A stretch of 64,000 bases of DNA, taken from assembly GCA_951406725.2 (NCBI GenBank), contig OX597816.1, forward strand, positions 34,038,001-34,102,000. The letters are read 5' to 3'. The first letter of the stretch is position 1. The number at the start of each line of letters is the position of its first letter. Of this stretch, positions 5,481 to 43,521 are shown piece after piece. Both the position numbers and the translations under genes were made by a program. This DNA comes from Octopus vulgaris. Taxonomy: Eukaryota. The notes under the pieces are model-generated. The model made no database searches. It saw nothing but the letters and a program-made list of their open reading frames with translations, and was not told the origin of the DNA.

Positions 5481-5829
5481 CAAAAAGGGAAATAATATAG
5501 ATTACTACCAGTGTCTCAGCACAAAAGACGAATTAGTCATTAGACAAAATATTATTCATATAGAAAATATATCATTCATGTAGAAATATAATTAAGGGCT
5601 CCTTATTTAGGAGCCCTTAATTATATTTCTCTCTCTCTATATATATATATATATTGTAGATAGTATAAATATAAGTTAGTATACATATATATTCGTTAGT
5701 AAATAAATATATATGTGCTAGTATAAATATATATTTATGTATATGTGCCTATAAATATTCACACATATACACGCATACACGCATGCACACGTAAATATAT
5801 ACGTACAGACACAGACGCACGCACACACG

Positions 5830-5914
<85 letters not shown>

Positions 5915-6090
5915 AATAAATATTAGGAATAAATCCAAATTTACAGGGAAAAAAAACAGATTTAGGATTAAATCCAATTTTATAGTAAAATATTATATAA
6001 TATTATTAGAGACAAAACCACTATTTTGCAAAACAAACAAGGAAAGACTTAATTAATACATAAAATTTTAATAAAAAGTCAAAAAAACCG

Positions 6091-6133
6091 CCACTACAAT
6101 TGTTTCTTGTCCTGATCGACAATCTTCAGGTGG
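6091..6133 (-). ncRNA. Minimal type-I hammerhead ribozyme (left arm)
   Basis: Reverse complement: CCAC-CTGAAGA-TTGTC-gatcag-GACAA-GAAA-CAATTG-TA-GTGG; all core nucleotides present. Confidence 0.85.
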
Positions 6134-6143
6134 ACTTCCAATA

Positions 6144-6347
6144 TATGAGATATTGGTGTGAGAGTAGTTGTATTTTTGTAATATGGGCCCTGGATTCTAA
6201 CAGAAGCACAATGTCTTGCGGGTACATGTAGAACCTTATTGATTGCCATCCTTTGTTCAGTGGACCATGGTAGTTTAACACCGTAGCACTGTAATTCTTG
6301 TCCTGACTGGACACATGAGCCACGTGGAATGGTATCTTATGCGGCAT
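6144..6347 (-). pseudogene. CEP104: CEP104 N-terminal fragment (~68 codons), left arm
   Basis: MPHKIPFHVAHVSSQDKNYSA...HGPLNKGWQSIRFYMYPQDIVLLLESRAHITKIQLLSHQYLI aligns by eye to the recalled CEP104 N-terminus (MPHKIGF...HAPTVSGWRSPRFCQFPQEIVLQM...KLQLLAHQYMI); truncated by the HHR segment. Confidence 0.88.
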
Positions 6348-6406
6348 TGTCGCTGCTCTTATGAGCATAATGATTCAAAGTCTCTCAATGATTTACAGTC
6401 TTTCTT

Positions 6407-6779
6407 TGGTTTCACTTGAAGGGAGAGAGAAGGCTAGTTGCTGCGTGACGTCTTAGAGATAAAGATTCTCTTCCGCTGTCGCCATTGGTTTCACTTGAAG
6501 GGAGAGAGAAGGCTAGTTGCTGCGTGACGTCTTAGAGATAAAGATTCTCTTCCGCTGTCGCCATCTTAGAATGGCGACAGCGGAAGAGAATCTTTATCTC
6601 TAAGACGTCACGCACGTCTCTCCCTTCAAGTGAAACCAATGGCGACAGAAGATCTTATCTCTAAGACGCTGTCGCCATTCTCTCCCTTCAAGTGAAACCA
6701 ATGGCGACAGCGGAAGAGAATCTTTATCTCTAAGACGTCACGCAGCAACTAGCCTTCTCTCTCCCTTCAAGTGAAACCA
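6407..6779. repeat. 79-nt unit (putative CEP104 5' UTR start) repeated tandemly and inverted at the palindrome centre
   Basis: ATGGCGACAGCGG...GTGAAACCA at 6407-6485 (-), 6486-6564 (-), 6571-6638 (+, internal deletion), 6639-6700 (scrambled) and 6701-6779 (+). Confidence 0.9.
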
Positions 6780-6838
6780 AAGAAAGACTGTAAATCATTG
6801 AGAGACTTTGAATCATTATGCTCATAAGAGCAGCGACA

Positions 6839-7042
6839 ATGCCGCAGAAGATACCATTCCACGTGGCTCATGTGTCCAGTCAGGACAAGAATTACAGTGC
6901 TACGGAGTTACACTACCATGGTCCACTGAACAAAGGATGGCAATCAATAAGGTTCTGCATGTACCCGAAAGACATTGTGTTTCAGTTAGAATCCAGGGCC
7001 CATATTACAAAAATACAACTACTCTCACACCAATATCTCATA
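6839..7042 (+). pseudogene. CEP104: CEP104 N-terminal fragment (~68 codons), right arm
   Basis: MPQKIPFHVAHVSSQDKNYSATELHYHGPLNKGWQSIRFCMYPKDIVFQLESRAHITKIQLLSHQYLI; the frame then reads YWKST and stops at the TGA inside the HHR core (7058-7060). Confidence 0.88.
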
Positions 7043-7052
7043 TATTGGAAGT

Positions 7053-7095
7053 CCACCTGAAGATTGTCCATCAGGACAAGAAACAATTGTAGTGG
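7053..7095 (+). ncRNA. Minimal type-I hammerhead ribozyme (right arm)
   Basis: CCAC-CTGAAGA-TTGTCC-atca-GGACAA-GAAA-CAATTG-TA-GTGG; GUA triplet, predicted cleavage after 7091; palindromic short stem III. Confidence 0.88.
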
Positions 7096-7184
7096 CGGTT
7101 TTTTTGACTTTTTATTAAAATTTTATGTATTGATTAAGTCTGTCCTTGCTTGTTTTGCAAAATAGTGGTTTTGTCTCTAATAAT

Positions 7185-7244
<60 letters not shown>

Positions 7245-7369
7245 TATATAGCAAGCAAGATAACTAATCTTAAAATCTTTGACTAGATATAAGTAGTAAC
7301 AATACCACAGGTAACTATATCATTGCTCTATTGAGAACTATGTTTCTACATTTTAACCCATCAGAAAAT

Positions 7370-17630: not shown

Positions 17631-17809
17631 TTATACAGTCCTATATTTAAGAGATGAGGAATTACGTACATTATTTACATTTGGCGGATATTTGTCCTCA
17701 TCTTGTTTGTTGTTAACACAACGTTTCGGCTGATATACCCCCCAGCTTTCATCAGGTGTCTTGGGGAAATTTCGAAACTGGGTTCCCATTCCTAAGGTAT
17801 TTATCGATG

Positions 17810-17810: not shown

Positions 17811-17844
<34 letters not shown>

Positions 17845-18140
17845 GAACATTGGAATCTTGTGGTTGGTAGCCCGCGCCATATGCTCGTAGGCAATTATGG
17901 AGTGAATGTTGATCAATATCTCCTCTTGTCACAGATTTGCGATATTCCTCTACCCCTATTTTGACGGAGCGGCGTGTTTCGCCTTTGTATAACCTACCGC
18001 AGCTGCATCGGAGGGTGTACACGCAATGTTTGGCCATATTCTCTCCTAAAGGTGGTTTTATGCGAACTGAGATATTTTCGAAGTGTTGTATTACTTTTGA
18101 GTGCCTACCTTAAAGGAAATAAGATCGATAGTAACATTTT
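17845..18140 (-). pseudogene. Penelope-like GIY-YIG endonuclease remnant
   Basis: [10 protein letters not shown]...[48 protein letters not shown] fits the PLE VY-x-I-x-CxCG-xx-YIGET-xR-x-L-xx-R-xx-EH pattern; frameshifted. Confidence 0.85.
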
Positions 18141-42280: not shown

Positions 42281-43004
42281 ACATATATGTATGTATTGTT
42301 GTGACTTAGGAATGTCATTACACCAAAAATGAGGAAACAAGCACAAGTACAATATCACTTATTTAATGTTAGTCAATTGATTAAATATCCAGCTTGCTAA
42401 ATAATCGATCGCCCGTGTAATGTGCAGGTTATATAATCTATTGTCTGTTTTTTAGTCAGTCATTTTGTCGTTATTCGTGACCTCATCAATGATATCCACA
42501 CCACTCTCCAATGACTGCCTTGAGTCTGACCGCGAATTTGTCTTATACCCATGAGCATATATGCCTGTACGTGTGCAAGGAAATATATGTGTGCGTACAA
42601 GAAAAGGCAAGTGTGAGAATAAACAAAGGCTTTGTGTGTATGTGTGCATGTATTCAATTGCGTGCGCATTTGTCTGGTGTGTCTGTATTTGTATAGCCGG
42701 GTGACTTCCTCTATGTATGTCTGTGTGTATGCATTAACCATCCGTGAAGTATTTTAGCGTTCGGCTTTTTGTTCGAGATCATTTCGGTCTTAGATCTATT
42801 GGCATTAGTCTTCATTCCAGCAAGATTTATAAGTTTTGTTCCTTATGTGACGATAGGTGGAGGAACGGGTCAGTACCGTAGGTGTGTGCGTGCATGTGTG
42901 CATATACGCGTGCACATGCACGCGTGTGTGAGCGGGATGTCACATAGCCTCATTACAACTGCATTGTATACACCTTTAAACACAGTATTAAATATGAGAA
43001 GTGG

Positions 43005-43521
43005 AAGGTGGTTTGCAGCATAAAGTGTATGGAATGTTATAGTAAGAATAGAAATACAACATACTTTGGGAAAACTTCTAGGAGTTTAGGGGAAAGACTA
43101 AATGGACACTGTCTGTTGTATAATTACAAGGCCGAGCTGACAGAATCGTTAGCACGCCGGGTGAAATGCTTAGCGGTATTTCGTCTGCCGTTACGTTCTG
43201 AGTTCAAATTCCGCCGGGGTCGACTTTGCCTTTCATCCTTTCGGGGTCGATAAATAAAGTACCAGTTTCGCACTGGAGTCTGCTTAAACCGTTTGTCTGT
43301 CCTTGTTTGTTCCCTCTATATTTAGAACCTTGTGGGCATTAAAGAAACATACAAGGCCGTCTGTACCTTCTCATTATTCCAAAGATCATCATGTCGGAAT
43401 GGTGAAAAGAATTGTCATCAACAGCTTGCCTATACGCCAGAGGAATCCGCCGCTTCGAAAGGTACGTGACTCTAATCTAATAAATGAGACATTACGAGTA
43501 TTAGATAGAAAATATACATAG
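43005..43521 (+). pseudogene. Second PLE-type GIY-YIG endonuclease remnant, split by a SINE
   Basis: VVCSIKCMECYSKNRNTTYFGKTSRSLGERLNGH (43005-~43110), then after the SINE SVPSHYSKDHH...NPPLRKVRDSNLINE...LDRK. Confidence 0.75.
43128..43349 (+). mobile_element. SINE family B with target-site duplication
   Basis: TACAAGGCCG at 43125-43134 and 43350-43359. Confidence 0.9.

Follow-up and report, generated by a model that had tools for sequence, protein, structure and literature searches.

Exons 1-3 of the host gene CEP104 were found joined to the 5'-untranslated region (5'-UTR) of a Penelope-like element (PLE) in the window (the whole stretch of 64,000 nucleotides that was analysed), where the product lies as an inverted pair of arms. 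The join connects a real splice donor to a real splice acceptor with zero bases gained or lost, and the host exons were very probably loaded by splicing onto the PLE acceptor, followed by ordinary PLE retrotransposition.

The CEP104 palindrome and its parent gene

The palindrome put forward in the original prediction is real, with inverted arms at 5994-6507 and 6679-7192 (514 nt, 98% complementary, 12 differences between the two), and it is flanked by (TA)n runs at 5833-5911 and 7189-7250. The left arm extends outward to 5912, and its extra outer bases (5912-5993), which had also been pointed out, correspond to the optional tail of the family. Each arm carries a 138-nt leader, composed of exon 1 and the untranslated part of exon 2 of CEP104, and then 68 CEP104 codons to HQYLI and YWKST-stop, in agreement with the leader of about 140 nt and the roughly 68 codons described beforehand. 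The junction after HQYLI, described as abrupt, is likewise present, and its nature is that of an exact splice junction. As had been remarked, poly(A) is absent from the insertion and no target-site duplication (TSD) is visible, which would be unreadable within (TA)n. Instead of a clean hairpin turn, the centre (6486-6700) shows a mosaic assembled from the exon 1 end, all of its pieces being taken, in both orientations, from the 80 nt at the 5' end of the captured RNA. The features are as follows, in window coordinates.

5833..5911, no strand: (TA)n target microsatellite, left flank; other family copies also lie in (TA)n
5912..6142, minus: long arm, a stretch of the PLE 5'-UTR exon that starts at acceptor base 6142, includes the hammerhead, and extends to the far end of the tail (about +226)
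6091..6133, minus: minimal type-I hammerhead motif, in exactly the form that is most common in the family (read from sequence)
6143..6234, minus: CEP104 exon 3 copy, 92 nt, ending at the splice donor
6235..6413, minus: CEP104 exon 2 copy, 179 nt, with the ATG
6414..6485, minus: copy of non-coding CEP104 exon 1, to the apparent transcript 5' end
6486..6700, no strand: centre, a second 79-nt exon 1 unit, then the mosaic of short direct and inverted pieces
6701..6772, plus: CEP104 exon 1 copy (parent C16:50424780-50424710, donor gtgagt)
6773..6951, plus: CEP104 exon 2 copy (parent C16:50371986-50371808)
6952..7043, plus: CEP104 exon 3 copy, its end exactly at donor gtaagt (parent C16:50338238-50338147)
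6839..7060, plus: chimeric ORF of 73 codons, 68 from CEP104 plus YWKST, with the stop inside the hammerhead core
7044..7190, plus: short arm, a stretch of the PLE 5'-UTR exon that starts at acceptor base 7044 and stops at the near end (about +151)
7053..7095, plus: minimal type-I hammerhead motif with one private loop II change (read from sequence)
7189..7250, no strand: (TA)n target microsatellite, right flank

The identification as CEP104 was borne out by Pfam, in which CEP104_N matches both arms above the cut-off (E 9.2e-14 and 1e-11); a PDB sequence search with the CEP104 piece returned 0 matches. In the assembly searched (2.8 Gb, 227 contigs), the parent gene lies on a different contig, C16, on the minus strand, and the captured exons 1, 2, and 3 are joined without the intervening introns of 52.7 and 33.6 kb. 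Since introns 1 and 2 are missing, the capture passed through spliced RNA, as had been anticipated, and the condition of contiguous parental DNA with the element already adjacent does not hold, the parent being elsewhere and retaining its introns. A genome-wide search for the CEP104_N family gave 4 matches, solely the parent and the two arms, so that the CEP104 junction, for which a copy count had been proposed, was found at one locus, that of this window. Exon 3 of the parent ends in CTCATAT followed by gtaagt, and the window continues with ATTGGAAG instead. A contig from a run guessed as RNA carries the parent alleles up to 7043 and then enters exon 4, the acceptor of which, at C16:50313041, gives intron 3 a length of 25.1 kb; position 7043, at which the normal transcript passes into exon 4, therefore corresponds to the true donor. 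Exon 1 was copied to the apparent transcript 5' end, in line with the expectation that the cDNA had reached the 5' end of the mRNA. The copy of CEP104 is most likely a dead hairpin pseudogene and inert, and the action in trans on CEP104 suggested in the original prediction is conjectural.

The exon 1 copy at 6701-6772 differs from C16:50424780-50424709 at 5 of 72 positions, a rate above that of exons 2-3, where 2 of 271 positions carry a shared change (Fisher p 0.005), and the window-type exon 1 also occurs in a run with another organism label; an old allele, faster change of the parent UTR, and errors near the RNA 5' end are candidates for this excess. Elsewhere in the window, a perfect small hairpin (5583-5629; arms of about 21 nt, 5-nt loop) sits 280 nt to the left of the insertion, where the sequence is AT-rich. 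Inspection of the open frames of the window by eye revealed no recognisable host gene. At 17729-17796 (plus), the repeat from which the donor of locus L087 derives was seen by eye in a further copy, and short frames with GIY-YIG-like words at 17843-18109 (minus) and 42948-43250 (plus) are, judged in the same way, probably remnants of other PLEs.

The mobilising element and its two-arm insertions

In other copies of the element, the intron starts as GACTTGAAA followed by gtatgt and ends as ttttag followed by ATTGGAAG, the same sequence that follows the CEP104 donor in the window. This 5'-UTR intron measures 1104-1126 nt in seven of seven loci measured, and exactly spliced element copies were present at 13 sites among those extracted. 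Besides the exact spliced form, first exons of the element ending in GACTT, GATAT, or GACTTGTA before the acceptor were observed (L004-L009, L090-L119). The PLE origin of the tip, as originally proposed, was confirmed at locus L029, where the long tip continues into a PLE reverse transcriptase (RT) ORF 286 nt after the acceptor (ATG at +286). This ORF, in the nearly full-length copy L029/L196 (C7:17644744-17647263), is about 2.5 kb long with two frameshifts and encodes an RT and a C-terminal endonuclease. Comparison by eye located the motifs SDKTRN (DKT), CTCRDKSNC (CxCX5C), CYLC (CxxC), and CRH (CxH), a RIKWKAF sequence at the position of the RWK motif, with K for R, and no CCHH motif in the endonuclease. 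The protein-atlas neighbours of the ORF at 0.92-0.96 are RT-like eukaryotic clusters, including RVT_1, and a Pfam search of the ORF gave no RT or GIY-YIG match. Judged by eye on these motifs and on the targeting of (TA)n by its insertions, the element fits a Hydra-clade PLE; it is distinct from the published Hydra-1_Obim family, the motifs of which differ, and its exact strings are absent from the accessible supplement of PMC8557442. The linker between RT and endonuclease in L029/L196 is asparagine-rich with an AAT repeat and resembles the N-rich inserts found in Penelopes of A. vaga. Introns of Ig-receptor paralogs contain a diverged sister subfamily (81-86%), which has a variant hammerhead and an acceptor of its own, at C28:10713590-10715563 and C28:8022481-8024017.

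The hammerhead in the window (7053-7095, plus; 6091-6133, minus) possesses the CUGANGA and GAAA core, an NUH site, a 4-bp stem I, a palindromic stem III, and a U-A pair as the first pair of stem II. An Rfam scan of the whole window yielded 0 matches at the gathering score, and folding did not return the monomer hammerhead as the structure of lowest energy (z 0.13 and 0.53). Of the intact ribozyme originally described, "intact" holds for the motif alone, which is that of a candidate ribozyme. The captured exons lie on one side of the cut site and both arm ends on the other, so that the RNA template would have been uncut there, as for the anole PLE.

The palindrome is not special to the CEP104 capture and is the normal insertion form of the family. 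One long and one short arm were found in 26 of 26 distinct inverted pairs (27 rows with one locus entered twice; three are segmental copies), one arm ending at about +151 and the other at about +226, so that a tail of about 75-80 nt is present on one arm only. Inverted truncated PLE copies with a one-sided tail are known (PMC8557442, accessible part). Where both junctions of a capture are present, the junction is identical on both arms in four of four cases (CEP104, L085/86, L123/124, L133/134), which suggests that both arms go back to one RNA or one cDNA. Fold-back, as originally proposed, and priming on two strands are both candidates for the origin of the arms.

The two-arm form bears on the possibility that the structure arose by DNA-level duplication at the parent or by an assembly artefact that doubled one arm, which is highly improbable. 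Palindromes are difficult for assemblers, no contig among those examined spans both arms, and in one DNA-type run the private letters of the right arm at 6911, 6968, and 6980 are absent. Against these points, the copy lacks the introns and the parent is located on a different contig; moreover, 12 differences separate the arms, which terminate at both family-typical points, and the same two-arm form recurs at 25 further loci. The exact letter set of neither arm appears in one of the runs, and the divergence between the arms is therefore a poor clock. The chimeric junction at 7043/7044 is crossed by contigs from three runs with three organism labels (6950-7068, 6983-7072, and 6925-7068), one of which also crosses both exon joints; one of the runs is possibly the source of the assembly. 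These contigs enter the element by 25-29 letters, fewer than the 31-letter bridging rule, and this short reach is expected because a multi-copy repeat begins there. No RNA data set was listed as carrying the sequence, and in one run guessed as RNA no contig over the chimeric junction is listed, from which nothing follows as to expression.

Probable splicing of host exons onto the PLE acceptor

The 23-nt start of the element's downstream exon occurs 868 times genome-wide, 308 of them directly behind the intron acceptor. Three patterns for non-native upstream letters returned 6, 38, and 16 sites, all 60 of which were read, the remaining 500 of the 868 lying outside the inspected set. The element's own first-exon variants or truncations account for 44 of the 60, and foreign sequence was found at 16 sites in 12 loci, i.e., at least 16 of the 868 family sites. 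Because the patterns were defined by acceptor-side sequence and fix that side, the donor side is the sole free test. The end of the source sequence was located for 9 of the 12 foreign loci, and a GT donor follows it in nine of nine, as listed below with the donor of each source.

CEP104: gtaagt
PNPT1, which we take to be the name of the captured gene with an RNase_PH domain (E 4.3e-15): gtaagt, 6 exons
Ig-domain membrane protein (Ig receptor): gtttgt
Multigene family on C17: gtaagg
L084: gtaagg
L120: gtaagt
L095: gtaagc
L135: gtaagt
L087: gtattt, a repeat-derived donor

Host introns are missing in the captures of CEP104, PNPT1, the Ig receptor, L120, and L095. Among the three loci for which the source end was not located, the last donor of the capture at L085, presumably from a VPS54-like gene, was found neither in 80 kb downstream nor genome-wide; the L085 peptide has no PDB match and was named by neither Pfam nor the protein atlas. 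In a mariner-containing capture the last 44 nt have no match, and the third locus is L204. Several side observations concern individual captures. At L085:1524-1950, 427 nt of coding sequence have no other match in the assembly, and the parent may be partly missing or consist of short exons there. The PNPT1-type capture (L132; C4:47696305-47658457) contains stops in frame upstream of the second captured exon, and one exon may be skipped. Three identical loci (L125-L130; C14:73.58, 73.81, and 74.54 Mb) carry foreign filler of about 200 nt, flanked by first-exon ends of the element itself and resembling the product of a second, template-switch-like capture route.

In the original prediction, the PLE RT copied the tip of the element and then jumped onto mature CEP104 mRNA. 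Such slips do occur, since the centre of the palindrome is a mosaic of template jumps and the three C14 loci carry foreign filler. A jump onto mature mRNA, however, has no cause to end at an exon boundary, and the join consists of the exon 3 donor and the element acceptor; with a chance of about 1 in 16 per site, GT donors at nine of nine located ends would arise at about 1e-11. A 4-nt ATAT overlap with one element variant is inapplicable, 21 of 22 such sites being of the other subfamily and none of the window's type. With nine such donors, it is effectively excluded that the host exons were loaded by a jump of the polymerase to mature mRNA.

A mechanism built on splice capture would begin with a Hydra-clade PLE possessing a 1.1-kb 5'-UTR intron, the downstream exon of which would supply the hammerhead and both insertion end points, as is seen in the copies themselves. 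The CEP104 exon 3 donor would have been joined to the acceptor of the element, with host exons 1-3 replacing the element's first exon, as is visible at the DNA level. The PLE protein could then bind downstream, nick (TA)n, and prime cDNA at two preferred points in uncleaved RNA (PMC11167929); this priming and the formation of the arms are modelled on a PLE of another clade (PMC11167929). Since the cDNA would start internally, poly(A) would be unneeded and any upstream spliced sequence could be copied. One RNA, or one cDNA folding back, may have given both arms, and repeated slips at the RNA 5' end could have produced the mosaic centre.

Splice capture could have proceeded in cis or in trans. 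In the trans form, for which the probability is close to even, the element RNA would be a general acceptor for trans-splicing, its fixed site taking, in the germline, the 5' exons of unrelated pre-mRNAs with long introns. In the cis form, a possible reading at somewhat under even, a sense copy with no donor in CEP104 intron 3 would have trapped exon 3, the RNA would have been retrotransposed, and the source would have been lost; the source allele would be harmful or rare and lost, or would have arisen in a single germline. Selection is expected to remove gene-trapping alleles. Acceptors with no donor are routine in the family, many arms being cut off inside the intron and pointing both ways, the supply of acceptors amounts to 308 exact sites genome-wide, and the 25.1 kb of CEP104 intron 3 present a target for insertion. 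A source-bearing L1 precedent for cis trapping is RAP1GDS1 (PMC11838501, accessible part). Against the cis form, the young acceptor is absent from 230 kb covering CEP104 (no N runs) and from 38 kb after the PNPT1 donor, and an exact same-subfamily acceptor in sense orientation within 3.5 Mb downstream was found for none of seven testable parents (CEP104, PNPT1, L095, L120, L084, the VPS54-like gene, and the C17 family). This source-copy test covered one haploid assembly, with exact-match patterns for five of the seven parents, and exact patterns miss mutated copies, giving an estimated power of about 60-80% (308 sites fall to 288 over 11 more letters); the Ig family was partly testable, and L135, L087, L123, and L204 were outside the test. 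Furthermore, the 12 foreign loci derive from 12 different sources, none with repeat output. By a diffusion argument, at least about half of neutral sources should persist, which gives about 0.02-0.05 for seeing none. The lack of an intronic source in the seven parents thus disfavours persistent cis sources and not harmful, purged ones. An equal cis/trans ambiguity is discussed for L1 (PMC11838501) and for LAVA (PMC5174737) in the accessible parts of these sources.

Two candidate sources were rejected. The element copies in introns of the C28 Ig genes belong to the diverged sister subfamily (81-86%) and have a different exon start, and the copy at C7:17.64-17.65 Mb, considered as a cis source for L120, has its acceptors upstream of the donor. 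This copy, near full-length and of the same subfamily, lies 1.4 Mb upstream of the start of the L120 parent gene (C7:19.06-19.36 Mb; introns between 60 and 120 kb).

If the trans form is true, natural trans-splicing events at a defined acceptor would be recorded in the genome, at no fewer than 16 of 868 sites, and trans-spliced exons would have been written back as promoter-proximal gene fragments and ready-made hairpins; since the RT starts internally and tends to two arms, captured exons would be returned in both of these forms.

Relation to known systems

PLEs are noted for intron retention and for moving unspliced host genes. The loading of spliced host exons at an element acceptor, from many genes in one genome, would be the opposite route, and capture at the splice site of an element points to a splicing route for partial gene copies. 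The products are retrocopies that keep the 5' end and have neither poly(A) nor TSD, and standard screens would likely miss them. In the two-armed products, host exons form inverted repeats that, if transcribed, could feed small-RNA or editing pathways. The formation of mRNA-retroelement chimeras by trans-splicing is debated for L1 and SVA, and the combination of one fixed acceptor with many host donors makes this question directly testable by sequencing. Splice capture is already known for SVA (PMC6139936) and L1 (PMC11838501), and PLE movement of host genes with introns kept is also known (PMC3846280), as given in the accessible parts of these sources. A literature search with little coverage of subscription journals found no report of splice capture by a PLE. 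The new elements are the PLE setting, the pairing of one natively used acceptor with many host donors at 16 or more of 868 sites, and the hairpin products. A retrozyme preprint describes, in its accessible part, tandem non-autonomous units and has no bearing on capture.

According to Craig et al. 2021 (PMC8557442, accessible part), Hydra-clade PLEs share with the window family an ORF for RT and C-terminal endonuclease with DKT, CxCX5C, CxxC, and CxH motifs, the hammerhead, the (TA)n targets, and an inverted 5'-truncated copy with an optional tail; a 5'-UTR intron is reported there for Penelope and Chlamys-3. In contrast to the published Hydra PLEs, the tail is about 75-80 nt here as compared with 30-40, spliced copies are common here, and host-exon capture at the acceptor is unmentioned in that part of the source. 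The anole Poseidon PLE, studied in vitro (Frangieh et al. 2024, PMC11167929, accessible part), is alike in that two internal RT start sites define a tail, AT-rich DNA is nicked on both strands, and uncleaved RNA serves as the template. It belongs to another clade with start sites inside the ORF, whereas both ends lie upstream of the ATG here (+151 and +226 versus ATG at +286), and inverted arms and capture are unaddressed in the accessible part of PMC11167929.

Among splice-capture systems, SVA_F1 (MAST2) and chimpanzee pt_SVA_D6 (STK40) are alike in that one or more host 5' exons were spliced to a retroelement acceptor and retrotransposed (PMC6139936, accessible part). Those elements are L1-driven, with poly(A) and TSD, and single founders were amplified to 84-94 copies (PMC6139936), whereas the window family shows 12 separate loci, none found amplified and some of them hairpins. 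Likewise, 5' chimeras of mRNA and LINE-1 carry host first exons that end at donors with long downstream introns, and trans-splicing was proposed for them, an intronic source being absent in 15 of 17 (Law and Burns 2025, PMC11838501, accessible part). The L1 acceptors in that set are varied or absent, with 6 junctions exactly at donors and near full-length L1, whereas the window family has one fixed, natively used acceptor, nine of nine donors, and a non-coding tip of 150-230 nt. With a donor joined to an acceptor and, of the L1 hallmarks, no poly(A) and no visible TSD, the family works like the SVA and L1 splice-capture chimeras and is not a member of them. On the other hand, Penelope of Adineta vaga shares the use of PLE machinery, which moves host sequence in trans via terminal sequences alone (Arkhipova et al. 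2013, PMC3846280, accessible part). There, the gene retains its introns and lies between direct pLTRs with a TSD, whereas in the window family the host introns are removed and host and element are linked by a splice junction.
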